A stretch of DNA of 40,548 nt from Roseobacter sp. (GTDB lineage Bacteria > Chloroflexota > Anaerolineae > J036 > Brachytrichaceae). Location of the stretch: the NCBI GenBank assembly GCA_043748055.1, contig JAYTNY010000164.1, positions 1 to 40,548 of the forward strand, in the 5' to 3' direction. Each line of letters opens with the position of its first letter. Within the stretch, counting starts at the first letter, position 1. The notes under the pieces are model-generated. The model ran no database searches. It was not told the origin of the DNA and saw only the letters and a list, made by a program, of their open reading frames with translations. Below are positions 5,991 to 38,592 of this stretch, one piece after another. The position numbers and the translations under genes were made by a program.

Positions 5991-7304
5991 TTACGCCACT
6001 GCCCGATCCAACGCCGCCGCAAAAATCTTCAGGCTTTCGTCAATCTGCTCGGCGTTGACGACCAGCGGCGGAATCCAGCGGATGACGTTTTGATAGGTGC
6101 CGCAGGTGAGCATCAGCAACTTCTGATCGGCGCACATCTTGACCACTTTGTTGGTCAGCGCCATGTCGGGGTTGCCTGCGTTATCCACAAACTCCGTCGC
6201 CACCATAAGGCCTATGCCGCGCACATCGCCCAGCACATCAAAGTCCTCTTGCAGCTTGCGCAGGCCGGTGATGAGTTGATCGCCGCGCTCGACGGCGTTC
6301 TGGATGATCTTCTCGTCCTTCATCACCCGAATGGTCTCGGCGGCGGCGGCGGCGCTGACGATGTTGGGGCCATACGTGCCACCGTGCGAGCCAGGCGGCC
6401 ATTTGGCCGCGATGTCTTTGCGAGTGAACACGCCACTGAGCGGCATGCCGGATGCCAGGCCCTTCGCCACAATAATCACATCCGGGATGACGCCGAAATG
6501 TTCGAGGGCGAAGAACTTGCCGGTGCGGCCAAAGCCGGTTTGTACTTCATCAAACACCAGCAAGATGCCGTTCTCGTCGCAAATGGCGCGTAGCTCTTGC
6601 ATAAAGCTCTTGGGCGGCACCACATAGCCGCCCTCGCCCAACACGGGCTCTAGCACAATGGCGGCGGTCTCGACGGCGCTGGTTTGGGTTTTGAGCATGT
6701 AGCGCAAGTGCTCCGGCGCATAGCCGCAGCAGCCGATGTCTTCAGGGCAGGCGGCGCTTACTTCGGCGCGACGCTCGCCGCTCATCGCTCGTTTTGCCAC
6801 CGGGCAGTGGTAGCAATGCGCAAACGGCGCGGCAAACACGCCTGCGGGCAGTGGCTGGTATTTTTGGCGATAGCTGTATTTGCTCATCGTCATTGCCATC
6901 GTCTGGGCGGTGCGCCCGTGAAAGCTGCCCTCAAAGGTGATGATGTTGGTTTTGCCAGTGGCTTGGCGGCTGAGCTTGACGGCGGCTTCAACGGCCTCGG
7001 CCCCGCTGTTGCTAAAAAAGAATGAGTCGAACCCAGGCGGCACAATCGTCTTGAGTTCCTCGGTTAAATCTAAAAGCGTTCGGCTCCAGCCCATCGCCAT
7101 CTGGCCGTGAATGAGTTTGGCGGCTTGGTTCTGAATCGCTTTGACAATGCGCGGGTGCGCATGGCCGGTATTCGTCACGCCAATGCCGCTGGTGAAATCC
7201 ATGTATTTGTTGCCCTGTGTGTCATACAAATAGATGCCTTCGCCGTGATCGAGTTCGATATCAAACGCGCGTGCCCAGACGGGGGAGAGGTTTTCTACAG
7301 CCAT
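5991..7304 (-). CDS. Class-III PLP-dependent aminotransferase (GabT/ornithine-type)
   Basis: 437 aa; SGAEAVEAAVKL, FHGRT, DEVQTGFGRTGK and a PLP-lysine context IVAKGLASG. Confidence 0.9.
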   Translation of the reverse strand: MAVENLSPVWARAFDIELDHGEGIYLYDTQGNKYMDFTSGIGVTNTGHAHPRIVKAIQNQAAKLIHGQMAMGWSRTLLDLTEELKTIVPPGFDSFFFSNSGAEAVEAAVKLSRQATGKTNIITFEGSFHGRTAQTMAMTMSKYSYRQKYQPLPAGVFAAPFAHCYHCPVAKRAMSGERRAEVSAACPEDIGCCGYAPEHLRYMLKTQTSAVETAAIVLEPVLGEGGYVVPPKSFMQELRAICDENGILLVFDEVQTGFGRTGKFFALEHFGVIPDVIIVAKGLASGMPLSGVFTRKDIAAKWPPGSHGGTYGPNIVSAAAAAETIRVMKDEKIIQNAVERGDQLITGLRKLQEDFDVLGDVRGIGLMVATEFVDNAGNPDMALTNKVVKMCADQKLLMLTCGTYQNVIRWIPPLVVNAEQIDESLKIFAAALDRAVA

Positions 7305-7335
7305 TTTTTGAAGAGATTAGAGATTAGTAATTGAT

Positions 7336-7490
7336 GTTATGCAGCAGCCACCTAACACCACTAGAAAGCATCCTGAGCGAAGTCGAAGGGTGCGGATGTG
7401 GTGAAACTCCTCTAGACAAGCTCGGCAGAGAGCGCATCCTTCGACTTCGCTCAGGATGCTTTTGACAGATCTTTTCTACCGCTGCATAAC
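7336..7490. repeat. MITE-like nested inverted repeat
   Basis: Outer 10-bp arms GTTATGCAGC (7336-7345) and GCTGCATAAC (7481-7490). Inner 29-bp arms at 7367-7395 and 7433-7461 (AAGCATCCTGAGCGAAGTCGAAGG.TGCG) have one mismatch. Confidence 0.85.
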
Positions 7491-7600
7491 GTGAGTTAGA
7501 GATTAACGCACTGATTGTAATAGCCAAACAAGGCGTTTCCGCCGGGTGCTAAAGTTCAGTCACAAAATAAATTATTTGTAGAACAGACTTTTGATACATA

Positions 7601-8234: not shown

Positions 8235-9449
8235 ATGAGTACATTCATGACCTCCAAACAGCTCTTCTTCACCAGCGAAAGCGTGACCGAAGGGCACCCC
8301 GACAAGATGTGCGACCAGATCAGCGATGCCGTGCTGGACGCTTGCCTGAAGCAAGACCCGATGAGCCGCGTGGCCTGCGAGACCGCCGTCAAGACCGGCT
8401 TTGTGCTGTGCTTTGGCGAGATTACAACGAAGGGCTTTGTGAACTTCGAGCCGTTGGTGCGCGAAGTGGTGAAGGGCATCGGCTTTGATGACAGCAGCAA
8501 GGGCTTTGATGGCAACACTTGCGGCGTAATGATTGCGTTGGCGGCTCAATCCCCCGACATTGCCCAAGGCGTGGACAGCGCGTTTGAAGTGCGCAATAAA
8601 CGCGGCAAGAAAGACCGCGAGGCCGAGATTGCCAAAGTAGGCGCGGGCGACCAGGGCATGATGTTTGGCTTTGCCTGCAACGAAACGCCGGAGCTGATGC
8701 CGATGCCGATTGCATTGGCCCATCGGCTGGGCCGCCAGATGAGCGCGCTGCGCAAGAACGGCACCATCCCCTGGCTGCGCCCCGACGGCAAGACCCAAGT
8801 GACGGTCGAGTACTCGGCGGGCAAGCCGGTGCGCGTAGACACTGTGTTAATTTCCACACAGCACGCGCCGGATGTGAGCCAGGAAGAAATCAACCAAGAG
8901 CTGACCGAGCAGGTGATTTACCCGACGATCCCCGGGGAGTACGTGGACAAGAAGATGAAGATTTACACCAACCCGACCGGCAAGTTCGTCATCGGCGGGC
9001 CGATGGGCGACGCGGGGTTGACCGGGCGCAAGATCATCGTGGACACGTATGGTGGCATGGGGCGACACGGCGGTGGCGCATTCAGCGGCAAAGACCCCAC
9101 CAAAGTAGACCGCAGCGCAGCCTACGCCGCACGCTGGGTAGCCAAGACTGTGGTGGCAGCGGGATTGGCGGATCGCTGCGAAGTGCAGGTGGCTTATGCC
9201 ATCGGTGTGGCTCGCCCGCTCAGCATCAACATCGAGACGTTTGGTACAGGCAAGGTGAGCGATGAGAGCCTAGTGAAAGCGGTGAACGAAGTATTTGATC
9301 TGCGCCCAGGTGCCATCATTCACGATTTGAAGTTGCGCCGACCGATTTATCAGCAGACTGCGGCGTACGGCCACTTTGGCCGCACGGATATTGACCTGCC
9401 GTGGGAGCAGACGAACCGGGCAGGGGCGTTGAAGAAAGCGGCGAAGTAA
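8235..9449 (+). CDS. metK: S-adenosylmethionine synthetase
   Basis: 404 aa; [46 protein letters not shown]. Confidence 0.97.
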
Positions 9450-9458
9450 CACTGCAAA

Positions 9459-9487
9459 GTGCGACGCACCTCGGAGGTGCGTCGCAC
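9459..9487. repeat. 13-bp-stem hairpin just after the metK stop
   Basis: GTGCGACGCACCT-CGG-AGGTGCGTCGCAC. Confidence 0.8.
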
Positions 9488-9504
9488 GTCACTAAGTTTG
9501 ACGG

Positions 9505-9541
9505 CCTGGTGAGTTTATAACTCATCAGGCTGTTTTGTTTT
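9505..9541 (+). terminator. Rho-independent terminator of metK
   Basis: CCTGGTGAGTT-TAT-AACTCATCAGG (one G:U pair) followed by CTGTTTTGTTTT. Confidence 0.7.
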
Positions 9542-9568
9542 CAACAATGCTTTTCGTAAAATTAACAT

Positions 9569-10852
9569 ATGCCTATTTGGAAAGATGAATCCAGACAAAA
9601 AGTTGCACAAGAAAACATCAAGTTTCTAATTGCTGCATGGAATGGAAATGGTTGGCCCATTACTTGGGCAAACAGTTTTGCGTTAGCAGGCTTGGTTGCG
9701 TGTTCCGTTAGAAAATCTGGGTTAAACAATAACTTGGTCAGGCAAGTTCTCCAAAAGATGATTGCTTCAAATCAAGATTCAATTGCAGATTTTGAAGTTG
9801 GTTTTGAGAAATTAAAAAAATTAACTGCGCGAACTGCACAAACTTGGAAGATATTCATTCCAATTGCAATGGAACTTCATCCAGATTTGGAACTACCACT
9901 ACATCTAAAAATGTTGGGGGTTACGTTCAAGTTCATGACTCTGCAGCAAGTGGATAAGCATCTTAGTTCAGCAGTCCGTCAGCAAATACGCGATCCTAAT
10001 TACATCAAACTGCATACAGGAGCCACAAACAAAAAAACTCCTGATTTGTTTTGGTATATATCCGTGAATGCACAAAGTTTTGATGAAGCATGGAATGCGA
10101 TCTCACCTGCTCTTGATGCGCTCAGGGGCAATATTGAAATGTGTCTAAATTTGTATCGAATGCGCATATTAGGTAGTCGGCCTTCAGCAAGGAGAGTCTT
10201 TCCACAATCGTTGTGGATGCTTTGTCAAAAAGACAAGAATGAGCCACATTGGCGATACTTTATTAACGATGAAGTTCTCGATGCAAAACCTCATAAGTTG
10301 AGTAAAGAGAACTTCTTAGCAATTGTACAAAACTGCAAACCTCTTATAAAGACCCCATCCGAAGAGTCCACTCTCTCAGTCATTAGCGACTGTTTTAGAC
10401 TCTATTCACAGGCAATGGATGCACGTTTTCCCTACGACAGCTTTTTGGGGTTTTGGCAAGTAATCGAGGGCGTAGTGCAATCTGAGTCACTAGGTGGCGA
10501 CACAAAAAAGGTTATTGGTAGAGTCCATTGGCATCATAGAAGGTACAAACTTGCGAGTTCAGGGTTTCGAGAGACTTTGCTCGATCTTGCAGAATTACGA
10601 AACGACCTTGTTCATCGCGGTCTACGTGACGTTACTGAAGATCAAGTAAATTTCGCAAAATTTGCGGCGGAGGCTGCTTTGACTTGGTTATTTTACGTTT
10701 GTAAATTTCTCCCAACCAAGTTGCATTTGGAGCAGTTCTACAAATTAAAAGACGTCAGTCCGCAACAGTTAAAAATCATTCAGGAAACCTTGAACTACAT
10801 TAAGTTGAATACTCAATCGAAACAGGCTCAAAAGATAAAGACGAAAAGTTAA
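9569..10852 (+). CDS. Hypothetical protein with a C-terminal HEPN-like domain (Rx4H), in an AT-rich island
   Basis: 427 aa. ELRNDLVHRG (R344-x4-H349, nt 10598-10615) sits in a predicted helical C-terminal module (ISDCFRLYSQAM / FLGFWQVIEGVV / LAELRNDLVH / FAKFAAEAALTWLF). The N-terminal roughly 260 aa are unrecognised. Composition differs sharply from the flanks. Confidence 0.6.
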   Translation: MPIWKDESRQKVAQENIKFLIAAWNGNGWPITWANSFALAGLVACSVRKSGLNNNLVRQVLQKMIASNQDSIADFEVGFEKLKKLTARTAQTWKIFIPIAMELHPDLELPLHLKMLGVTFKFMTLQQVDKHLSSAVRQQIRDPNYIKLHTGATNKKTPDLFWYISVNAQSFDEAWNAISPALDALRGNIEMCLNLYRMRILGSRPSARRVFPQSLWMLCQKDKNEPHWRYFINDEVLDAKPHKLSKENFLAIVQNCKPLIKTPSEESTLSVISDCFRLYSQAMDARFPYDSFLGFWQVIEGVVQSESLGGDTKKVIGRVHWHHRRYKLASSGFRETLLDLAELRNDLVHRGLRDVTEDQVNFAKFAAEAALTWLFYVCKFLPTKLHLEQFYKLKDVSPQQLKIIQETLNYIKLNTQSKQAQKIKTKS

Positions 10853-10875
10853 AGGCTTTGATACGCGTTAAGTGA

Positions 10876-11448
10876 TTAGCGATCCATCCAAGTTGTCCGC
10901 AATATCGAGAACACCACCGTATCCGAAAACTGCCCGTCCGGCTCACGAAAATTTTCTCGAAAGAGCGCTTCTTGCACAAAGCCCAGCTTCTCTAGCACAC
11001 GGCGCGAACCGGTGTTATCAGGATGAATATGCGCTTCGACGCTGTGCAAGCCAAGCGTGGTGAAGCCAAAGTGCAACGCTGCACCCACCGCCTCGGGCAT
11101 GATGCCGCACCCCCAGAACTCTGGCGATAACTCATAGCCAATCTCGGCGCGATGATGATCCTTCATCAAGCGCCAGAAGCCGCAGGTGCCAACAAGTTCC
11201 GATTGCCCACGCAGCGTAATCGCCCAACGCACCGCTTCGCACTCCTCAAACGCCTTCTCCGTGTCACGAATCCGTTGCACAGCCTGATCCAAAGACGTCA
11301 TCGGCGCGCGGCCAAAGTAACGCATAGCCAGCGGGTCGGCCATGATGCGATACATGGCAGGGGCATCATCGGCGGTGGCGACGCGCAGGGTTAAACGCTC
11401 GGTTTCTAGCGCGGGGAAGGTGGCGAAAGCGGTGGTTACATCCAACAT
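10876..11448 (-). CDS. GNAT-family N-acetyltransferase (RimJ/RimL-like)
   Basis: 190 aa; LETERLTLR start, HRAEIGYEL, GCGIMPEA, GLHSVEAHIHPDNTGSRRVLEKLGF. Confidence 0.85.
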   Translation of the reverse strand: MLDVTTAFATFPALETERLTLRVATADDAPAMYRIMADPLAMRYFGRAPMTSLDQAVQRIRDTEKAFEECEAVRWAITLRGQSELVGTCGFWRLMKDHHRAEIGYELSPEFWGCGIMPEAVGAALHFGFTTLGLHSVEAHIHPDNTGSRRVLEKLGFVQEALFRENFREPDGQFSDTVVFSILRTTWMDR

Positions 11449-11592: not shown

Positions 11593-12012
11593 ATGACTAA
11601 TACAACTCCCCCGCGTCGTCGGCCAAAATCCATCGTGCTGAAGAGTGGGTATCAGCCCCGCGTTTACAGAACCTATGAAGACTGGCTTGCCACACAAAAG
11701 TTGGACAAGCGCACGCCCGATGAACGCGGCATTCGTGTGGGTTCGCCGGTAATGTGGCGGCACAAACACAACGGCATCATCATCAGCGACCGGGTGACGG
11801 TGTTGGCGATCTCGGACAACACGTTGACGGTGAGCGTGAAAGATGTAAAAGAGCGCACCTGCAAAATTCATGTGGACGAAGTGGCGGGCGAGGAAGATCG
11901 CCGCCTCTCGATGTGGGGGACAAGCGAGCGCAACCTGGCCTCCGACGCCCCGCCAACAGCCCCTTCACCCGCCGAGCCTCCCAAGACACCCGCCGAGGCC
12001 CCCAAAGCATAG
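11593..12012 (+). CDS. Small hypothetical protein, paralog A (Pro/Ala-rich tail)
   Basis: 139 aa. The core RPKSIVLKSGYQPRVYRTYEDW...GIRVGSPVMWRHKHNGIIISDRVTVLAI..NTLTVSVKDV.ERTC is repeated in the next gene. Tail is ...PPTAPSPAEPPKTPAEAPKA. Confidence 0.6.
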   Translation: MTNTTPPRRRPKSIVLKSGYQPRVYRTYEDWLATQKLDKRTPDERGIRVGSPVMWRHKHNGIIISDRVTVLAISDNTLTVSVKDVKERTCKIHVDEVAGEEDRRLSMWGTSERNLASDAPPTAPSPAEPPKTPAEAPKA

Positions 12013-12079
12013 AAATTATTTCTCACCTAAAGCCTGCGCCGAAGCCCATTGCCTCGGCGCAAGTGTTTTTTCACTTAAC

Positions 12080-12463
12080 ATGCGTACTACTCGACCGAAA
12101 TCGATTGTGCTAAAAGGCGGCCAGCAACCGCGCGTGTATCGAACCTATGAAGATTGGCAAGCCGAGCAAAAGCGAGACACGCGCACGCCCAGCGAGCGAG
12201 GTATTCGGGTGGGTTCGGCGGTGATGTGGCGGCACAAACACAACGGCATCATTCTTTCAGATCGGGTTACCGTGCTCGCCATCAACCACAACACGCTGAC
12301 CGTGACGGTGAAAGATGTGCAGGAGCGCACCTGCGACATTGACATTAGCGAAGTAGTGGCGAACGACGATGATCGCATGTCGGTGCGTGAGACATCTGCG
12401 CCCGCAGACACCGCCGACAAAGAAGCCAAACCAGAAACCGAGACAAAGGACGAGGAAGAGTAA
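12080..12463 (+). CDS. Small hypothetical protein, paralog B (acidic tail ending DEEE)
   Basis: 127 aa from ATG 12080. By eye about 75-80% identical to paralog A over about 95 aa. Tail is ...APADTADKEAKPETETKDEEE. Confidence 0.6.
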   Translation: MRTTRPKSIVLKGGQQPRVYRTYEDWQAEQKRDTRTPSERGIRVGSAVMWRHKHNGIILSDRVTVLAINHNTLTVTVKDVQERTCDIDISEVVANDDDRMSVRETSAPADTADKEAKPETETKDEEE

Positions 12464-15666: not shown

Positions 15667-18600
15667 ATGCCGTCCCCCTCCCACGAAATACAACGCACTA
15701 CACATACCTCACAGGTTCACCTGTTTGGCAGCTTGCGAGTCACGCACAACGGCGCGGCCATCGCCATTACCCGCAGCCGAGAACGTGCGCTCTTCACCTA
15801 TCTCGTCCTGCACCCCCGCACCGCGCACAGCCGAGAGAAGCTGGCGGAAATGCTTTGGCCCGATCGAGCCTCCGAGCGCTTGGCGCGCAACTTCAACAAC
15901 GTGCTCTACCGCTTGCAAACAGCGTTGGGCGCAGGGTGGTTGGAGGTGAACTCGAAAGCCATCGCGTTAAAACAGCGTGAAGATTTATTTGTGGATGCCT
16001 GGGCCTTCGAGCAATTAAGCGCCGCCAACGATCCCAACTCCCTCGAGAACGCCATCAACCTGTACGCCGCCGATGCGAACACGGGCGATGCCATGCTGCT
16101 GCCCGAAGCCTACGAGGACGATTGGCTGTTGCCGCTACGCGAGCAGTTCCACGAGCAATTTTTGAACGCATTGCTAACCCTCGCCGCCAGCCACGAGCAA
16201 TTTGCCCAACACGAGGCCGCGCTCAAAACCTATCGCCGCCTCATCCAAATGGATGCGCTGCGCGAAGAAGCCACGACCGGCGCGATGCGCGCATTGGCAC
16301 ATCTAAACCGCGTGCCAGAAGCCCTCAGCGCGTATGAACAACTTGAGGCAGCCATGCAGACCGAGTTACGTGCCAAGCCCAGCGCGGCGGCGCAGGCGTT
16401 GGTGGGGTTGTTGCGGGCGCGTTTACAGGTGGGGCGTTTGGGCATGGATGAGGCCACAAACGAGTCCACAGCGCACATTCCGTTTGTGGGCCGCGCCAGC
16501 GAACGCGCCCAACTGCTGGCCAAGTTGGAGCAAGCGCACAACCAAGCCGGTGGCCTGGTCGTACTGATGGGCGAGGCAGGCAGCGGCAAGTCTCGCTTGT
16601 TGGACGAAGTGGTGCGCAGCGCCAGCCGCCGAGGTTGGCAAATTGCCAGCGCGCGCGGCAACGAGTTCACCCGCCCCGCCCCGTTTGCGCCGCTGGCCGA
16701 GGCACTGGCCAACGCCCTCCCCAGGCCACGCCTGCAACAACTGGCGGGCGTGATGCAACCCATGTGGCTGCACCTGGTGCAAAGCATTCTGCCCAAAGAT
16801 GAAGCACCCACGAAAGCAGAAACCAGCGCGCTGGATGTATTCGCCAGCGACGCCGACAGCATTAGTACCGCCGTGCGGCGCGTGTGCGTGGGATTGCAAA
16901 GCATTGCGCCGCACTTGTTTATTTTGGACGATGTGCAATGGGCTGATGCAGGCTTTTGGGATGTGCTGGAAAGTTTGCGCGGGCCGTTGGCCGAGCTTTC
17001 GGTCTTGCTCGTCATCAGCGGGCGCTTGAACGAACTGCAACAACAGCCCGACGTGTGGCAACGGCTAAACGCGTGGGAGACCGCCGGCGTACCCACGCTC
17101 GCGCTCTCTGGCTTGCGGGCCGAGGAGCTGCGCGAGTTGGCGGCGGGCGTGGGGTATGGCATGCTCAACACGGTGCAGGCGGCGCAACTGGTCTCGGCCA
17201 CAGGTGGCAATCCGCTCATGGCGTTGGCGTTGCTGCGCGAGGCCAAATCCAAACACAGCCAGAACCCAACGCTGGCCTTGCAATCGCTGGCCGAACTAAC
17301 CCGCGAGGTGGGCAAGACCCGTTCGTCGTTGGATGGTTACTTCGAGTTGTTGCAGCGCCGTTTATCGGCGTTAAGCAGCGCGGCGCAACACGCCATCAAA
17401 CTAGCTGCCGTGTTGGGCTACCGGTTTGAGTACGAAGCCCTGAGCGCACTGGCGCAAGTAGACCACTTGCCCAGCGAACAATTGCCCGCTGCATTAAATG
17501 AGTTGGAACGCGGGCGCATGATTCATCTGGAGCCGGATGGCTACCGGTTTGACCACGATACGCTGCGCGCCTTCATCTATTCGCGTTTGCCCGAATCCAC
17601 GCACCGCGAGTTGCATCGTGCTGCCATTCGCGCACTGGTGCAACACACCCCGCTCAACAGCGAGCTGAACGCTGCGCCGCTTCTCTATCATGCCGAGCAA
17701 GCACACGACACAGATGCCATCGCCACCTACGCCCAACTTGCAGGCGAGCAAGCGCTGGGCATTCATTCGTTTGTGGCCGCGCTGCGCTATTTTGAGCAAG
17801 CGATTTCCGCATTAGACGACGGACGGCGGGCGACAGACGACGAGTTGCGCACCCAGTCGTCTGTCGTCTCGGCTTCCGAGCCGCCTCGTCCGTCGTCTAA
17901 TCTACTCAAACGTTTGTGCGCAGCATCTCTAGGCCGCACGCGCGCGCTGAATCATCTGGCCCAACGCGAGGCCCAACACGCCGAGTTGAGCCGCCTGCGC
18001 GAATGGGTGGTGGTGGCGGACGATGAAGCCATCGCCACCGACAGCGCCATCGAACACGCCGTGTATTACACCGCCACCACGCAATGGGCCGAGGCCGGGC
18101 GCTGGGTGGATGAAGCGATGGCGCACGCAGAACGATTGCACGACAACCGTCTAAAATTTCGCGCCGCCGATGCGGCCTACCACGCCCTGCACCGCCAATT
18201 TAAGAATGCTGAGGCGACAGAGCTGGCGCATCGCATGTTGGCTTTGGCCGAAGAGCTAAACGACGCTGCGGCAAAGGCCGATGCGTTGGCGAACCTGTGC
18301 GAGATTCGCAGTTTGATGGGGCAGTTCGACGAAGCATCAGGCTATGGACAGCGGGCGGTACAACTTTTTCAGCAGCAAAATAATTTGATTGGCGAGGCGC
18401 GCGGGGCGACGGCGTTGGGCGATTTGTATTTGCGCACCAGCGACTTTGGCCGCGCCCGCGCCAACTTGCAACGCGCCATGACGCTGTACACCGAGCTGAA
18501 TTTCAAGAGCAAGTACGCCCATTGCGCCAACGCATTGGGTGCTGCTGAATATTGGCTGGGCAATTTTCCGGCGGCGTTAGATTTGTACGAGTCGGGCTTG

Positions 18601-19386
18601 AAGAGCGCACGCGAGGCCAATGACCGCTGGTACATCGCCTACACATTAACAAATATCGGCGAGTTGTATTACGACATTGGCGAAATGGCGCTGGCCGAGC
18701 AGAACCAACGCGAGGCGGTGGGCGTTGCGCAAGAAATTAACTTCAAATGGGTGGAGGGCTATGCACGCTGTTATTTGGGGCGCATCTGCGCCCACAACAA
18801 GCAGTTTACGCTTTCCATTGATGAGGCGCGCACAGCAGTGCAGTGCATGGAGGACTCGAATAACGCCGACAACTGGTACTTCTGCCAATCGCGTTTGGCA
18901 CTGTGCTATTTGGATAGCGGCGATTTAGCTGCCGCCAGCAACGAGGTGGATGTGATGCTGGCGCGGCTGCAAATGGTGATGCCACGCAAGGTGCATTTGC
19001 AAGCCGCTCAAAACGCAGCGTATGCCGTGCGCAAAGCACAAGGCCGCTTGCCCGAGGCCCGCCAACACATTTGTTTGGCGGAGGCCGCCCTGCTGGGCCA
19101 AGCCAGCGAACTGCCACCGGATGCCCGTGAGAAATTTTTGAAGTTCGCCCGGCTGAACCAAGAGACGCTGAAGGCGATTAAGGCCGAGAGCGTGGTGGTG
19201 CAGCAAAAGCTGCTGCGCTTGGATGGCGCGGGTTATGCGACCGTGAACTGGACACTGCATCACCCCAGCGATGATGCACTGGCCGATGATGCGCGCCGCC
19301 GCGCCATGCGGCAACGCCTGGCGGATGAGGCGGCGGCGCAGGGGGCGCGGGCGACTGACGAGGATTTGGGGGATGCGGTAGCGTAA
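15667..19386 (+). CDS. SARP/AfsR-like STAND regulator: winged-helix + BTAD + P-loop ATPase + TPR
   Basis: 1239 aa. N-terminal VHLFGSLRV...ERALFTYLVLH...LAEMLWPD (OmpR/SARP-type DNA-binding domain), then a BTAD-like helical region. Walker A GEAGSGKS, Walker B LFILDDVQWAD. C-terminal TPR-like repeats. Confidence 0.85.
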   Translation: MPSPSHEIQRTTHTSQVHLFGSLRVTHNGAAIAITRSRERALFTYLVLHPRTAHSREKLAEMLWPDRASERLARNFNNVLYRLQTALGAGWLEVNSKAIALKQREDLFVDAWAFEQLSAANDPNSLENAINLYAADANTGDAMLLPEAYEDDWLLPLREQFHEQFLNALLTLAASHEQFAQHEAALKTYRRLIQMDALREEATTGAMRALAHLNRVPEALSAYEQLEAAMQTELRAKPSAAAQALVGLLRARLQVGRLGMDEATNESTAHIPFVGRASERAQLLAKLEQAHNQAGGLVVLMGEAGSGKSRLLDEVVRSASRRGWQIASARGNEFTRPAPFAPLAEALANALPRPRLQQLAGVMQPMWLHLVQSILPKDEAPTKAETSALDVFASDADSISTAVRRVCVGLQSIAPHLFILDDVQWADAGFWDVLESLRGPLAELSVLLVISGRLNELQQQPDVWQRLNAWETAGVPTLALSGLRAEELRELAAGVGYGMLNTVQAAQLVSATGGNPLMALALLREAKSKHSQNPTLALQSLAELTREVGKTRSSLDGYFELLQRRLSALSSAAQHAIKLAAVLGYRFEYEALSALAQVDHLPSEQLPAALNELERGRMIHLEPDGYRFDHDTLRAFIYSRLPESTHRELHRAAIRALVQHTPLNSELNAAPLLYHAEQAHDTDAIATYAQLAGEQALGIHSFVAALRYFEQAISALDDGRRATDDELRTQSSVVSASEPPRPSSNLLKRLCAASLGRTRALNHLAQREAQHAELSRLREWVVVADDEAIATDSAIEHAVYYTATTQWAEAGRWVDEAMAHAERLHDNRLKFRAADAAYHALHRQFKNAEATELAHRMLALAEELNDAAAKADALANLCEIRSLMGQFDEASGYGQRAVQLFQQQNNLIGEARGATALGDLYLRTSDFGRARANLQRAMTLYTELNFKSKYAHCANALGAAEYWLGNFPAALDLYESGLKSAREANDRWYIAYTLTNIGELYYDIGEMALAEQNQREAVGVAQEINFKWVEGYARCYLGRICAHNKQFTLSIDEARTAVQCMEDSNNADNWYFCQSRLALCYLDSGDLAAASNEVDVMLARLQMVMPRKVHLQAAQNAAYAVRKAQGRLPEARQHICLAEAALLGQASELPPDAREKFLKFARLNQETLKAIKAESVVVQQKLLRLDGAGYATVNWTLHHPSDDALADDARRRAMRQRLADEAAAQGARATDEDLGDAVA

Positions 19387-23250: not shown

Positions 23251-23681
23251 GGTTTAGAGATATCAGCCTTCTTCGCATACTCAACCGATTTCTGGATCAG
23301 TTCTTTCAACACCGTCAGGTCTACATCGCTCAGCTTGTTGATATACAGACACCCCTTGCCAAGTTTGTGCTTGCCCAACTTTTGCATCAGCAATGGCGCA
23401 TCTTGCTCCAAGCCATACAAGTGCAGATACAGCGTTAAGTTTTGCTTGCGCGGCGAGAACGCCACCACCATCCAATCACCCTCGCGTCCGCTGGCATATT
23501 TGTAGCGGTAACTGCCAAAACCCACGATTGCGCTGCCCCACATCTTGGGCTCGGCCTTTGTCACTTGCTGCATCAGCTTGGCGACGGCCCGGCAGTCTTT
23601 GCGCCGTTGCTCATCTTCAATGCCATTCAAAAAATCGTCAACACTCACGTCATTCTGTTTGGTTTTTAGCTCTGCAGGCAT
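23247..23681 (-). CDS. DUF1801 (YdhG-like) domain protein
   Basis: Start at MPAELK (ATG 23681). VDDFLNGIEDEQRRKDCRAVAKLM...MWGSAIVGFGSYRYKYASGREGDW...KQNLTLY. Confidence 0.8.
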   Translation of the reverse strand: MPAELKTKQNDVSVDDFLNGIEDEQRRKDCRAVAKLMQQVTKAEPKMWGSAIVGFGSYRYKYASGREGDWMVVAFSPRKQNLTLYLHLYGLEQDAPLLMQKLGKHKLGKGCLYINKLSDVDLTVLKELIQKSVEYAKKADISKP

Positions 23682-23716
23682 AGTGCATTCTCCTGTCTCC
23701 GAAAACTTTTGTCTGC

Positions 23717-24136
23717 TCACGGGTTGGTCTTCTTCATATGTTCAACCGATTTCTGGATCAGTTGCTTTAATACCGTCGTGTCAACCTGACTCAGCCTATT
23801 GATATACAAACACACCTTGCCCGTTTTGTGTTTGCCAAGCTTTTTCAGCAAATTGTCATATTCTTCAAAACCTGCTGTGATGTAGAGCGTGAGGTTTTTC
23901 TTGCGCGGCGTGAACCCCGTTAACATAGAGTCGCCCTCGCGCCCGCTGGCATATTTGTAGTGGTACTTCCCAAAGCCCACAATACTGTTGCCCCACAACT
24001 TGGGTTTTTGCTTTGTTACTTGCTGCATCAGCCGGGCCACCGCCTGGCAATCTTTGCGGCACTGTTCATCCTCAATGCCGTTCAAAAACGTCTCCACACT
24101 TACATCCGTCTCTTGTGTTTTATTTTCTCTCGCCAT
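23717..24136 (-). CDS. DUF1801 (YdhG-like) domain protein, tandem paralog
   Basis: 139 aa, clearly paralogous to the gene at 23247-23681 (VETFLNGIEDEQCRKDCQAVARLM...LWGNSIVGFGKYHYKYASGREGDS). Confidence 0.8.
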   Translation of the reverse strand: MARENKTQETDVSVETFLNGIEDEQCRKDCQAVARLMQQVTKQKPKLWGNSIVGFGKYHYKYASGREGDSMLTGFTPRKKNLTLYITAGFEEYDNLLKKLGKHKTGKVCLYINRLSQVDTTVLKQLIQKSVEHMKKTNP

Positions 24137-34684: not shown

Positions 34685-35216
34685 TCTTCCACTCATCTTT
34701 CAAAATGGCATAGAGCAAGTGATCGTGCCACTCGCCTTTGATGAACTCGCGCTCGCGCAGACGGCCCTCGCAGGTCATGCCAATTTTCTCCATAACGCGG
34801 TAGGAGCCGATGTTTTCGGCCACGCACCACGACCAGACGCGGTGCAGGTTAAGTTCCTCGAAGCCGAAGTTTACGATGGCGCAGGCGGCTTCGCTGGCGT
34901 AGCCCCGGCCCCAATAAGCGCTGCTGATCTCGTAGCCGATGTTGGCCTCGCCCTGCTCTGGGTCATTCACGCGGATGCCGCAATTGCCGATGAGCGCGTC
35001 CTCAGATTTAAGCGTGAGAGCGAGTTGAAATTTGCGGCGGGGCTGCTCGGCTTGCTGATCGAGAAACATCTGCACGAAAGACTTGGCACCGGCCTCGGTT
35101 TGCTCGACGAGCGGATAGTAGCGCAGGTAAAGCGAGTCGTTTTGATAGGCCAGCACGGCGGGCCAATCGCTGGCGACGAATTCGCGGAGGTGCAAGCGGT
35201 GGGTATCCAGCTCCAT
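34662..35216 (-). CDS. GNAT-family N-acetyltransferase (RimJ/RimL-like)
   Basis: Start at MELDTHRLHLREF (ATG 35216). ANIGYEISSAYWGRGYASEA, LHRVWSWCVAENIGSYRVMEKIGM. The last residues SMKYEV are encoded by the heptamer repeat. Confidence 0.85.
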   Translation of the reverse strand: MELDTHRLHLREFVASDWPAVLAYQNDSLYLRYYPLVEQTEAGAKSFVQMFLDQQAEQPRRKFQLALTLKSEDALIGNCGIRVNDPEQGEANIGYEISSAYWGRGYASEAACAIVNFGFEELNLHRVWSWCVAENIGSYRVMEKIGMTCEGRLREREFIKGEWHDHLLYAILKDEWKRSMKYEV

Positions 35217-35254
35217 GTCACGCACAGTATCATCGTTTGTTGAACGTGCGTAAA

Positions 35255-35596
35255 ATGGGATTGATGATTGAGGAAATCGAGACCAATTCGAAATTGATTT
35301 CAACGCTATGCGACAAGTACTTCGTGCAGCGGCTAGAGCTATTTGGCTCAGCGGCAACCAATCATTTTGACCCAGCCAAAAGCGACATTGATTTTTTGGT
35401 TCGCTTCAAGCCTATGCCAATGACGATGCGTGCAGACACATATTTTGGCCTGTTGTTTTCACTGGAAGATCTCTTTCAACGACATATCGATCTCGTCGAG
35501 CCAGATGCCATTCGCAATCCATATTTTCAGCAATCTATTCAAGAAAAGCCCAAGCAACTGATCTATGAAACTCGAAGTCAAGAAGCATCTGTATGA
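35255..35596 (+). CDS. mntA: MntA-type nucleotidyltransferase antitoxin (type VII TA)
   Basis: LFGSAATNHFDPAKSDIDFLV (GS...D.D minimal nucleotidyltransferase motif). Start is uncertain (TTG 35237, ATG 35255 or 35264). It overlaps the HEPN gene by 32 nt. Confidence 0.8.
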   Translation: MGLMIEEIETNSKLISTLCDKYFVQRLELFGSAATNHFDPAKSDIDFLVRFKPMPMTMRADTYFGLLFSLEDLFQRHIDLVEPDAIRNPYFQQSIQEKPKQLIYETRSQEASV

Positions 35597-35915
35597 CATT
35601 CAGGCAGCATCTGAACTCATCGTTCAATTTATTCACGCGAAGTCATTTGCTGATTACGAGGCTGATGTCATGCTTCGTTCGGCAATTGAGCGCCAACTCA
35701 TGGTTGTGGGCGAAGCTTTTGTTCGCCTTCGCAGCGAATTGCCGGAAGCTGATGAGGATGATCTCTTGGATCGCATCACAGATGCCCGTAAGATCATCGG
35801 CTTTCGCAACATCCTCGTGCATGGTTACGACGCAATCAAAAACGATATCGTTTGGATTGTGATCATCAAAGACTTACCCGCTCTTATTCGAGAAGTGAAC
35901 ACGTTGCTCAATTAA
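35565..35915 (+). CDS. hepT: HepT-type HEPN (DUF86) toxin
   Basis: 116 aa; GFRNILVHGY (Rx4H) near the C-terminus, DUF86-like helices. Confidence 0.85.
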   Translation: MKLEVKKHLYDIQAASELIVQFIHAKSFADYEADVMLRSAIERQLMVVGEAFVRLRSELPEADEDDLLDRITDARKIIGFRNILVHGYDAIKNDIVWIVIIKDLPALIREVNTLLN

Positions 35916-35952
35916 CTGTGATGATAACTGTGTTGAACTTTCAACTACTTAT

Positions 35953-38592
35953 ATGGCCCGATCCGCTCAAGACGAAGACACCCCCGTTCGCCGTCAATAT
36001 CTAGACCTCAAACGTAAATACCCGGATTGCATTTTGTTCTTTCGCCTGGGCGATTTTTTCGAGACGTTTGATGCGGATGCCGAGCTGATTGCACGCGAGT
36101 TGGATGTGGTGCTGACCTCGCGCCCAATCGCCAAAGACACGCGCATCCCCATGGCCGGGGTGCCGCACCACGCCGCCGAGGGTTACATTGCCCGCTTAAT
36201 CGAGAAAGGCTACCGCGTGGCGCTGGCCGACCAGTTGGGCAGCGAGGCCATCAACGGCTTGGTGCCGCGCGAGGTGCGCCGCGTGATTACCCCCGGCACC
36301 GTAGTAGAGCCGGGAATGTTGGACGCGGGCAGGCCGAATTATTTGGGGGCTGTGGTTGGTAATTGGGGATTAGGGATTAGGGATTCGGAGCAGCCAATCA
36401 CTCATCCCCAATCCCCAATCACTTCTGTTGGTTTCGCCTACTGCGATATTACGACCGGTGAGTTTTGGACCACGCAGTTGGAGAGTGCCATCGAGTTGGA
36501 ACGCGAGATGGCCCGCGTGCAACCACGTGAGGTGTTGCAACCGGAAACAACTGCACAGTCCCGTCAAACATCACCCATCACCAATCACCAATTACTCATC
36601 ACCCCCTACCCCGCTTATCGTTTTGAGCTAACCAACGCGCGCCAAATATTGCTCGACCAATTTAAGGTAAGCACGCTGCAAGGTTTTGGGCTGGAGGACA
36701 AGCCCTTTGCGATGCGGGCGGCGGGCGCGATTCTGGCGTATTTGCGCGAGACGCAACCGGCAGCGCTGCATCAGATGAACGACTTGCGCGTCTACTCTAC
36801 TGCGCACTTTATGGGGCTGGATGCAGTGACGCGGCGCAACCTGGAGCTGACCGAAGGCTCGCGCAGCCGCAACAAGCAGGGTTCGTTGCTGAGCATTTTG
36901 GACAAGACGATGACCCCGATGGGCGCGCGCCTAATGCGCAGTTGGGTGTCGCAGCCGTTGGTGGAGCAGCAAGCGATTGAGGAGCGGCTGGCCCGCGTGG
37001 ATGCGCTGTTTAATGATGCCATGTTGCGCACACAACTGCGCGATGGCCTAAAGAACATGCCCGACCTAGAACGCCTGACCGGGCGCGTAACCAGCGGCAT
37101 CGCCAAGCCAAAGGACTTGTTGAGCTTGAAGGCAGCCTGTGAACAGAGTTTGGAGGTTGGAAGGTTTGAAGGTTTGAACAACACCAACCTTCCAACCTTC
37201 CAACCTTCCAACCTGCAACCCATCATCGAGTTAATTTCGAGCGCCATCAAAGAAGAGCCTGATGACGATGGCTTTGTAAAGCCAGGGTTTAGTGAGGAAT
37301 TGGATGGCGTTCATCTGTCCTCACGCGAGGCGAAGACGTGGGTGGCGAATTTGGAGCGGCTGGAGCGCGAACGCACGGGCATTACGTCGCTCAAGGTCGG
37401 CTACAACAAAGTCTTTGGCTACTACATCGAAATAACCCACGCCAAAAAGGAGCTGGCCCCAGCCGATTACATTCGCAAGCAAACGCTGACGAATGCCGAG
37501 CGCTACATCACCCCGCAACTAAAAGAATACGAGACGCTGATTTTGAACGCCGATGAGCGCACGACTGAAATTGAATCGAGATTGTTGACGGAGATCAACG
37601 CGGTGATTGGCTCGCATGCCAAGCACTTGATGAGCGCGGCACATACGATTGCGCGGCTGGATGTAGCTGCATCGTTGGCCGAGGTGGCTGCACGCAACAA
37701 CTATGCACGCCCACAATTTAGCGCCGAGAACAAGATTGAGATTACAGCAGGCCGCCACCCGGTAATTGAGCAATTGTTGAGCGAGGTGCCGTTTACGCCC
37801 AACGACACCTGCCTGGATAGTAATGCGCGGATTCACGTCATCACCGGCCCCAACATGAGTGGCAAGAGCACCACCATGCGACAGGTGGCGCTGGTGGTGT
37901 TGATGGCGCAAATTGGGAGCTACGTGCCCGCCCAACGCGCCAGTTTGTGCTGCGTCGATCGCATCTTCACCCGCATCGGCGCGCAAGATGAATTAACCGC
38001 GGGCCAAAGCACCTTCATGGTGGAGATGGTGGAGACGGCCAACATTTTGCGGCACTGCACGCCGCGCAGCTTGGTGATCTTGGACGAAATTGGGCGCGGC
38101 ACCAGCACCTACGACGGCCTAGCGATTGCGTGGAGCGTGATCGAGTTCTTGCACAACCACCCCGACCGGCGGGCGATGACCCTGTTTGCTACGCATTACC
38201 ACGAGCTGATTCAGCTTTCCGAAACGTTGCCGCAAGTGCGCAACTTCAACGTGGCGGTAAGTGACGAGGGGGGCGATGTCGTGTTCCTTCATAAAGTAAT
38301 TGAGGGCGGCGCGGACAAAAGCTATGGGGTGCATGTGGCGCAGTTGGCGGGCTTGCCACCAGCGGTGGTGCATCGGGCGCAGGATGTGTTGAAGGGGCTG
38401 GAGGCGGGGAGCCAAAAGACAACAGACAACTCGGCTTCGGAGCCGCGACAACAGACGGCAGAGGAGCCTGCGCAGATTTCGATGTTTGCGGAGCGTTCGG
38501 CTGCGCTGGAGAAGCTGAAGGGGCTGGACCCGAATGCGATGAGTCCGTTGGAGGCGTTGATGGCTTTGTTTGAGTTGAAGAAGTTACTATAG
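35953..38592 (+). CDS. mutS: DNA mismatch repair protein MutS (carrying three in-frame repeat-derived insertions)
   Basis: 879 aa; TPVRRQYLDLK, GDFFETF, Walker A GPNMSGKST, STFMVEM, DEIGRGTSTYDG, FATHYHEL. Confidence 0.95.
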   Translation: MARSAQDEDTPVRRQYLDLKRKYPDCILFFRLGDFFETFDADAELIARELDVVLTSRPIAKDTRIPMAGVPHHAAEGYIARLIEKGYRVALADQLGSEAINGLVPREVRRVITPGTVVEPGMLDAGRPNYLGAVVGNWGLGIRDSEQPITHPQSPITSVGFAYCDITTGEFWTTQLESAIELEREMARVQPREVLQPETTAQSRQTSPITNHQLLITPYPAYRFELTNARQILLDQFKVSTLQGFGLEDKPFAMRAAGAILAYLRETQPAALHQMNDLRVYSTAHFMGLDAVTRRNLELTEGSRSRNKQGSLLSILDKTMTPMGARLMRSWVSQPLVEQQAIEERLARVDALFNDAMLRTQLRDGLKNMPDLERLTGRVTSGIAKPKDLLSLKAACEQSLEVGRFEGLNNTNLPTFQPSNLQPIIELISSAIKEEPDDDGFVKPGFSEELDGVHLSSREAKTWVANLERLERERTGITSLKVGYNKVFGYYIEITHAKKELAPADYIRKQTLTNAERYITPQLKEYETLILNADERTTEIESRLLTEINAVIGSHAKHLMSAAHTIARLDVAASLAEVAARNNYARPQFSAENKIEITAGRHPVIEQLLSEVPFTPNDTCLDSNARIHVITGPNMSGKSTTMRQVALVVLMAQIGSYVPAQRASLCCVDRIFTRIGAQDELTAGQSTFMVEMVETANILRHCTPRSLVILDEIGRGTSTYDGLAIAWSVIEFLHNHPDRRAMTLFATHYHELIQLSETLPQVRNFNVAVSDEGGDVVFLHKVIEGGADKSYGVHVAQLAGLPPAVVHRAQDVLKGLEAGSQKTTDNSASEPRQQTAEEPAQISMFAERSAALEKLKGLDPNAMSPLEALMALFELKKLL
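36361..36423. repeat. Heptamer-based imperfect inverted repeat inside mutS
   Basis: AATTGGGGATTAGGGATTAGGGATT ... AATCACTCATCCCCAATCCCCAATCACT, translated in frame as NWGLGIRDSEQPITHPQSPIT. The GGGATTA unit is the same as in the hairpin at 39866-39919. Confidence 0.85.
36569..36603. repeat. Degenerate tandem heptamer (CATCACC/AATCACC/AATTACT)x5 inside mutS
   Basis: CATCACC CATCACC AATCACC AATTACT CATCACC, translated as ..TSPITNHQLLIT... Confidence 0.8.
37152..37214. repeat. Octamer-based imperfect inverted repeat inside mutS
   Basis: GGAGGTTGGAAGGTTTGAAGGTTTGAA-CAACAC-CAACCT(TCCAACCT)x3, translated as LEVGRFEGLNNTNLPTFQPSNL. GGTTTGAA is the complement of the repeat unit at 148-187. Confidence 0.85.

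Follow-up and report, generated by a model that had tools for sequence, protein, structure and literature searches.

The gene at positions 9569..10852 (plus strand) of contig JAYTNY010000164.1 (assembly GCA_043748055.1), a stretch of 40,548 nucleotides (nt) here called the window, encodes a protein of 427 amino acids (aa) that belongs to an unannotated family in which a HEPN effector is fused to an undescribed N-terminal module. The host is an uncultured, Anaerolineae-like member of the Chloroflexota, whose MetK shares at best 75% identity with that of species-representative genomes. The assignment of the C-terminal domain to the HEPN superfamily is well supported and we regard it as highly probable; it does not extend to any of the named HEPN families. 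With little more than even confidence we read the protein as a horizontally acquired, self-contained HEPN RNase that probably acts as an ApeA-like sensor-effector for abortive infection. A defence function is plausible in view of the defence-type neighbours of the homologues, the patchy distribution of the family and the foreign composition of the gene.

The HEPN domain and its predicted active site

In the published definition of the HEPN superfamily (Anantharaman et al. 2013, PMC3710099), helix 3 ends in an R-x4-6-H motif whose conserved R is directly followed by a polar residue (N, D or H), helix 2 carries a conserved acidic residue, typically in the form Ex3[KR], and an insert separates the two helices. 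Its nucleases are metal-independent RNases that produce 2',3'-cyclic phosphate ends and possess a dimeric composite active site (PMC3710099). The window protein contains the sequence ELRNDLVHRG, within which the predicted catalytic motif R344-N345-D-L-V-H349 (10598..10615, plus strand) occupies the C-terminal end of helix H3; R344 is encoded by nt 10598-10600 and H349 by nt 10613-10615. The R-x4-H spacing, the polar N345 directly after the arginine, the location of the motif at the end of H3 and the insert between H2 and H3 are all found in the family and fit the published definition.

The motif by itself means little. R-x4-H occurs at a rate of 0.37 per 427 aa in the other proteins of the window and in 45% of the shuffles of the window protein, which itself holds two copies. 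Since the pattern is not beyond chance, its significance comes from family-wide conservation only. Conservation was counted in 69 full-length members and in 82 further, divergent members, and profiles were checked over 150 members. In the full-length set, R344 is present in 68 of the 69 sequences and N345 in 65 (with H in two others), and V348, H349 and G351 occur in all 69; among the 82 divergent members the R-x4-H motif is at least 90% conserved. Helix H2 contributes W296, Q297 and E300 (10454..10468, plus strand), of which W296 and E300 are invariant and Q297 is conserved at 97%, and E300 is the predicted auxiliary acidic residue. The residue at +4 from E300 is not K or R (consensus AEAITLS), and the Ex3[K/R] form of the acidic motif is absent. 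The second R-x4-H copy of the window protein (RVHWHH, 10520-10537, aa 318-323) is formed by R318, which lies in the H2-H3 insert and is 97% conserved, whereas H322 is conserved only among the closest relatives of the window protein. R318, or the RVHWHH stretch, may provide an auxiliary substrate-binding or catalytic residue.

The profile and structure searches gave matches that were individually weak. Among the 150 members, 11 matched the Pfam model MauJ (best E value 2.4e-6) and nine matched HEPN_RiboL-PSP (best 3.1e-6), both weakly, with further weak matches to HEPN_Apea in two members and to HEPN_Cthe2314 in one; no Pfam model besides these recurred. A comparison of the family profile with the PDB yielded a single match above noise, to the ApeA defence protein 9hxm_A (Ec4ApeA; E=0.0018), in which the alignment is collinear on both the H1/H2 motif and the RNxIVH helix. 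A Foldseek search of the PDB with the isolated domain placed HEPN proteins at nine of the top 23 positions, namely HepT 6m6u/6m6w, 7ae8 (two chains), 5yep, 4nqf (two chains), 2hsb and 1wol, none of them individually significant. No useful literature that treats MauJ or RiboL-PSP together with HEPN was found.

Domain architecture

The AlphaFold2 model of the full-length protein, built from a 69-sequence alignment, has a mean predicted local distance difference test score (pLDDT) of 95.6 and a predicted template modelling score (pTM) of 0.90; the C-terminal domain modelled alone reached a pLDDT of 96.5. The protein begins with a helical bundle (aa 1-89; 9569..9835, plus strand) composed of helices 7-23, 33-45, 54-66 and 72-88 of the AlphaFold2 model. 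In divergent members this bundle, whose family identity is 0.22, escapes detection more often than the other modules do, and we propose that it is the regulatory or sensor part. It is followed by a middle α/β domain (aa 90-261; 9836..10351, plus strand), recognised from the AlphaFold2 secondary structure, whose family identity is 0.21 and whose conserved residues are W93, P98, A174-W175, D183, R186-G187, E190, P214 and W216. The HEPN domain (aa 262-395; 10352..10753, plus strand) is the most conserved region, with a mean pairwise identity of 0.39. In the domain model it consists of H1 (268-284), H2 (288-302), an insert (305-323, with helices 305-308 and 312-323), H3 (330-350), a loop (351-356), H4 (357-377) and a further helix (384-393). 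The remaining residues (aa 396-427; 10754..10849, plus strand) form a long C-terminal helix (398-426 in the model) with a Lys-rich tail, a poorly conserved segment (identity 0.18) that extends the all-helical C-terminal part of the model to aa 262-427.

The three-module layout was detected in 115 of the 150 members, and most of the others are fragments. In a few near-full-length members the N-domain model did not detect the N-terminal region, which is a divergent helical domain. The middle domain and the HEPN module occur together in every non-fragment member, and in none of the 150 members is the HEPN module joined to another kind of N-terminus. Profile and structure searches of Pfam, the PDB and BFVD revealed no relative of the first 261 residues; the matches to Cas7, CENP-N and a kinase obtained in the full-length Foldseek search of the PDB and BFVD were rejected as noise (E >=0.06).

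A family of hypothetical proteins

Relatives were collected by an exhaustive HMMER scan over 1.84 billion cluster representatives (50%-identity clusters). Word-indexed searches with either the protein alone or the 69-sequence profile had returned only the query and one relative, the candidate prefilter being saturated, and the exhaustive scan was required. It yielded 333 proteins at E<=1e-3, 74 of which reached E<=1e-30. The members are mostly 400-430 aa long and align from end to end at 21-38% identity. Their clusters are rare and mostly singletons; one stems from a gammaproteobacterial metagenome-assembled genome, and the G+C contents of the hosts span 27-65%. At curated thresholds, Pfam, NCBIfam and PADLOC cover no member of the family, and the name given in the source is "hypothetical protein". 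When the 69 full-length members were compared with PADLOC-DB v2.0.0, isolated matches at chance level were all that was obtained.

The gene and its junction

The open reading frame (ORF) of the 427-aa protein starts with ATG at 9569, and its coordinates include the stop codon. Alignments with homologues begin at residue 1-4, which supports this start. Upstream lies metK (8235..9449, plus strand), the end of which is 119 nt from the ORF; downstream, after a gap of 23 nt from the stop codon, the convergent ORF of a GNAT protein follows (10876..11448, minus strand; match to Acetyltransf_3, E=9e-39).

The composition of the gene differs from that of its surroundings. In 400-nt windows the G+C content is 0.39-0.43 over 9601-10800 compared to about 0.56 for the window, and that of the gene is 0.402. 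Its G+C content at third codon positions is 0.376 versus 0.66-0.77 in all 16 other window genes tested, and an index of the codon-adaptation type, with the pooled window genes as reference, gives it 0.434, less than any of those 16 genes. At 60-nt resolution the G+C content falls from 0.60-0.67 to 0.30-0.48 at about position 9540 and recovers past about 10860. The 60-nt and 400-nt values together delimit a low-G+C block of about 1.3 kb (~9535..10860) that is essentially coextensive with the single gene. Other patches of lower G+C content in the window (35201-36000, 23601-24000 and 7201-7600) reach 0.44-0.47, and the one at 7201-7600 is the spacer from which the aminotransferase and AsnC genes diverge.

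The upstream boundary of the block (9459..9541, plus strand) consists of a palindrome, the metK terminator hairpin and a T-run, with host-like G+C content up to about 9535. The palindrome (9459-9487), directly past the metK stop codon, is perfect and has 14-bp arms (GTGCGACGCACCTC/GAGGTGCGTCGCAC); it might bind a protein or act as a second terminator. Separate from it and further downstream, a terminator-like hairpin spans 9500-9534 and is followed by the T-run, which extends to 9541. No direct or inverted repeats beyond chance flank the ORF at the junction, no tRNA was found between metK and the GNAT gene, and no integrase, small partner ORF or mobile-element gene was seen near the ORF in the window. 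An Rfam scan of the window identified a tRNA-Met only; at the locus it showed no RNA element.

An independent assembly (L001; ENA ERZ28573525) contains a 99.8%-identical copy at the same junction, with four mismatches over 9.5 kb, one of which lies within the ORF (H242L), and a third assembly (L002) contains the 3' half of the gene. From these near-identical copies it was concluded that the gene is intact and stable in this population. A search of 80 related metK loci (±6 kb) of Chloroflexota and Bacillota revealed no homologue of the protein. A comparison with an empty metK-GNAT site is impossible because MetK identity does not exceed 75% even in the closest genomes, where synteny has already eroded; L013 alone has a GNAT gene nearby, and its product is 28% identical. 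As judged from base composition and codon usage, the gene is a single-gene island of foreign composition that was acquired horizontally.

These results bear on an earlier note on the same DNA, made from its letters and ORFs. The note had described a single AT-rich ORF between the metK terminator and the convergent GNAT gene, with an R-x4-H motif of the HEPN type in a C-terminal four-helix module, an N-terminal part of about 260 residues that resembled nothing known, and no antitoxin, integrase or flanking repeats. The coordinates of the ORF and of ELRNDLVHRG were correct, and the missing relatives of the N-terminal part and the missing partner genes were borne out. The foreign composition, which the note had estimated by hand from a few lines, was confirmed by the sliding-window G+C content and the codon index and is confined to about 9535-10860; the HEPN assignment has gained the family-wide conservation of R344 and H349, the topology of the model and the weak HEPN matches. 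The Foldseek comparison that the note had suggested brought forward HEPN proteins in number and no significant match. The word "orphan" does not hold in view of the 333 representatives at the level of 50%-identity clusters.

Comparison with ApeA, HepT, MauJ and DARNA

In ApeA, an N-terminal domain made of helices is followed by an α/β Mid domain and by a HEPN domain that is split; the protein forms doughnut-shaped oligomers and is activated to cut the tRNA anticodon loop when a ligand binds between its N-terminal and HEPN domains (10.64898/2026.01.26.701840). The window protein shares with ApeA the organisation as a single polypeptide without a partner gene and the identical order of modules, from a helical N-terminal part through an α/β middle domain to a C-terminal HEPN domain. 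Both contain the HEPN H1/H2 motif [LF]R[LF][YF]...F..[YL]W..[LA]E..TL and the active-site helix [KL]RNxIVH, and both HEPN domains have their nearest structural relatives in the HepT toxins 7AE8 and 5YEP. The window protein is smaller, with 427 aa compared to about 600-670 aa in ApeA, and its two motifs are separated by about 45 residues, whereas insertions in the HEPN domain increase this spacing to about 100 residues in ApeA.

For a direct comparison, Ec4ApeA-type genes from plasmids L127 and L128 served to collect 61 homologues, from which a 28-sequence profile was made; a 2-sequence profile was used as well. In hhalign, the alignment of the family with the 28-sequence profile reached a probability of 15% (E=0.0018) over 77 columns, from before H1 through H2, and a domain-first alignment gave a probability of 8.5% for ApeA. 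The ApeA family is marked by the Pfam model HEPN_Apea (PF18739) together with the ApeA N-terminal domain (Gao 2020; 10.64898/2026.01.26.701840). The window protein does not match HEPN_Apea, which is matched by two of the 150 members at E values of 0.0021-0.0036, and no ApeA N-terminal domain was detected. ApeA is also absent from the top 50 full-length Foldseek matches. Since the comparison stayed sub-significant, HEPN_Apea matched two members only and full-length homology was lacking, membership in the ApeA family was rejected and ApeA was kept as a remote resemblance. The earlier note had named AbiD/F-like and ApeA-like proteins as examples of lone HEPN effectors against phage; by the PADLOC, Pfam and hhalign comparisons the window protein is neither AbiD/F-like nor a member of the ApeA family. 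The resemblance to ApeA lies in logic and motifs, and possibly reflects a very remote common origin. The Ec4ApeA-type proteins themselves (solved structure 9hxm), encoded at L127:1604-3430 on the Enterobacter cloacae IncC plasmid pCC32 and at L128:1409-3427, are annotated as "hypothetical protein" and have no Pfam match at E<=1e-3, HEPN_Apea included. The gene on L127 adjoins the annotated anti-phage gene ppl.

Structurally, the C-terminal domain is matched best by the HepT toxins of HEPN-MNT systems (6m6u, 7ae8 and 5yep), with Foldseek probabilities of up to 0.91 and TM-scores of 0.37-0.45, and these toxins have the active-site logic of R-x4-H in common with it; the matches are not significant (E >=0.1). 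HepT is a stand-alone protein of about 130-150 aa that is paired with a nucleotidyltransferase (MNT) antitoxin, whereas the window protein carries 261 additional N-terminal residues, no MNT antitoxin gene lies beside its ORF and none is conserved in 24 homologue loci. HEPN_RiboL-PSP (PF18735) and MauJ (PF17419), the most frequent weak matches, extend over the H1-H2 region and the domain core. However, the window protein scores 20.6 bits with MauJ against a cut-off of 28 bits, about 87% of the members match neither model at E <=0.01, and the models cover the domain only (MauJ about 116 positions) rather than the three-module architecture. DARNA (PD-T7-3) likewise unites a HEPN nuclease and a non-catalytic sensing domain in one defence protein, which acts in abortive infection via tRNA cleavage. 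It is built from an N-terminal HEPN domain and a C-terminal Pds5-like helical domain, an order opposite to that of the window protein, and was rejected as an analogue on account of this order; the PADLOC PD-T7-3 models do not match the window protein.

Genomic context of the homologues

Metagenomic loci that encode relatives number 44, of which the 24 with usable flanks were analysed. No neighbour family is conserved across them, except for synteny among three closely related genomes, which indicates that the gene has no obligatory partner. At least six of the 24 loci have a match to a defence model in the gene directly beside the homologue: DrmMII, with a gene resembling a nicking restriction endonuclease and then DrmA after it, in L083; AbiTii in L100; the PADLOC candidate PDC-S68 in L126; a reverse transcriptase of the retron/DRT type in L098; a type II or orphan methylase in L090; and the PADLOC candidate PDC-M05A in L094. 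Within 6 kb of some homologues there are further restriction-modification enzymes, an integrase and transposases, and a ParE-like gene is near some of them. Many of the homologue genes are poorer in G+C than their own flanks, by up to 0.17. In terms of sequence context, these findings are consistent with an accessory gene that moves horizontally and frequently ends up in defence islands.

The closest metagenomic homologue (L083:2344-9638; 40% identity) is followed after 25 nt by a DISARM-like cluster that comprises the cytosine methylase DrmMII, a nicking-endonuclease/HhH-GPD protein and a DrmA of 1355 aa. ORFs of 51-55 aa are located just downstream of two homologues (L130:1478-1633 and L132:4966-5133); they are not conserved in the family and are absent from the window.

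The window itself contains, besides the immediate neighbours of the gene, two small paralogous genes without assignment, an ATP-grasp-like gene, a PsbP-like gene and the gene of a large BTAD-AAA-TPR regulator. The regulator (15667-19386), a SARP/STAND-like protein of 1239 aa with BTAD, AAA_16 and TPR domains, matches BrxC/BrxD and a novel-STAND NTPase model faintly and is the only gene near the locus to give a defence-flavoured signal. The paralogous ORFs (11593-12463; 139 aa and 197 aa by longest-ORF call) are arranged in tandem, share about 76% nucleotide identity over 288 nt, have no Pfam match and are kept in L001 and L002.

Weighing the interpretation

Several observations weigh against a defence nuclease of the ApeA type or against the evidence from which it is deduced. 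The best Foldseek match of the isolated domain, to HepT, has an E value of 0.11 at a probability of 0.91 and is not significant, TM-scores with HEPN proteins are 0.37-0.48, or 0.3-0.5 in round figures, and four-helix bundles cross-match readily in structure searches. In hhalign the family reached probabilities of 5-15% with the ApeA profiles (E=0.002-0.009; 77-79 columns). PADLOC-DB v2.0.0, with 5027 models that include AbiD/F/U/V, PD-T4-2, PD-T7-3, ApeA and the PDC candidates, gave no match for the window protein at E values up to 10. Homologues are absent from 50,697 phage records and 72,556 plasmid records searched by tblastn and from IMG/VR, so there is no direct link to mobile elements. 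The genes around the locus in the window are of the housekeeping kind (class III aminotransferase, AsnC/Lrp regulator, MetK, GNAT) and do not form a defence island, and several homologue loci are metabolic (RecG/PhoU, AtuA, carboxyltransferase, lipoamide dehydrogenase). The adjacency to defence-type genes in six of 24 loci stands without a matched background rate, and matches of methylases or reverse transcriptases to a single PADLOC hidden Markov model are no proof of complete defence systems. Finally, the window protein has P-Q-S-L-W at aa 212-216 (10202-10216) of the middle domain, where the family has P-H-P-x-W (P214 in 91%), and this deviation could affect the regulation or folding of the window copy.

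Some of these observations would suit a HEPN RNase that serves the cell itself, in stress-induced RNA turnover, in RNA processing or as an accessory or regulatory protein of the MauJ type, and that is encoded by a patchy accessory gene. The housekeeping and metabolic flanks of the window locus and of several homologues agree with such a role, as do the failure of all 5027 PADLOC models to match and the absence of the gene from phage, plasmid and viral collections; the weak Pfam match seen most often, MauJ, belongs to methylamine-utilisation clusters. However, the strongly foreign composition implies recent transfer, the gene is missing from all 80 related metK loci and its relatives are scattered over rare singleton clusters, no operon or metabolic partner is conserved, and a defence-type gene is immediately adjacent in at least six of the 24 loci, which together make a cellular role unlikely. 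We hold for somewhat less likely still that the protein is a selfish or addiction toxin, the remnant of a mobile element, with an unrecognised small ORF, an RNA (as in AbiF) or an intramolecular domain as antitoxin. HEPN domains are common among the toxins of toxin-antitoxin systems, HepT (6m6u, 7ae8, 5yep) is structurally the best match, and some homologues have transposases, an integrase or a ParE-like gene in their vicinity, with ORFs of 51-55 aa after the gene in two loci. Yet neither an MNT gene nor any other partner is conserved in the 24 loci, and the window offers no room for an antitoxin gene, since the GNAT gene follows after 23 nt and the upstream 119 nt are filled by the metK terminator hairpins. 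Flanking repeats and mobile-element genes are likewise missing from the window, and a protein of 427 aa with three domains is far larger than the minimal HepT toxins.

The least probable alternative, to which we give very little credence, is that the C-terminal domain is a generic helical bundle or an inactive, ligand-binding HEPN-like domain and not a nuclease. It could appeal to the lack of any significant structural or Pfam match, to the frequency with which R-x4-H arises in shuffled sequences and to the missing Ex3[K/R] form. Against this, R344, N345, H349 and E300 are near-invariant in 150 members that are only 21-38% identical overall; the HEPN definition is matched by the position of the motif, by the polar residue that follows R, by an acidic residue on H2 and by the insert between H2 and H3; and all weak profile matches converge on HEPN families. 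The earlier note had also asked whether homologues sit in defence islands: defence-type genes are adjacent in at least six of the 24 loci, the surroundings of other loci are metabolic and those in the window are of the housekeeping kind. Overall, the interpretation given in that note is partly supported, and its defence part is plausible.

Proposed function and significance

In the reading that we prefer, a self-contained defence nuclease, the HEPN domain is a predicted metal-independent endoribonuclease, as established HEPN biology would suggest, with a putative active site composed of R344, N345 and H349 at the end of H3 and E300 on H2. Homodimerisation, as known from characterised HEPN RNases, would probably complete the site. 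The N-terminal and middle modules, which are less conserved, would hold the nuclease inactive until an infection-associated cue arrives, a role proposed by analogy with ApeA and DARNA. The cue would then elicit cleavage of RNA, either tRNA or mRNA, and the resulting arrest of the cell would amount to immunity of the abortive-infection type. A more specific version, which we put forward tentatively and consider somewhat less than an even prospect, is that the proteins constitute a previously undescribed family of single-protein anti-phage nucleases, a compact and distant cousin of ApeA in which a new sensor, its cue possibly a small-molecule ligand, gates the cleavage of tRNA or mRNA by the HEPN domain.

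Predicted HEPN conflict proteins are already numerous, so a specialist will not be surprised by this family. The analysis fills an annotation gap, as at least 333 sequence clusters across phyla are named "hypothetical" and lack a Pfam, NCBIfam or PADLOC model. If the proteins do not serve in defence, they represent one more uncharacterised HEPN accessory gene, of modest interest. If the protein is an immune nuclease, it would be a compact, well-folded, single-gene addition to the HEPN defence repertoire. Its 427 residues, modelled with high confidence, its clean organisation as a single gene and the precedent of ApeA make it a tractable candidate for experiments. The sensor module without known relatives could then lead to a novel infection cue, or display in minimal form the ligand gating recently demonstrated for ApeA.

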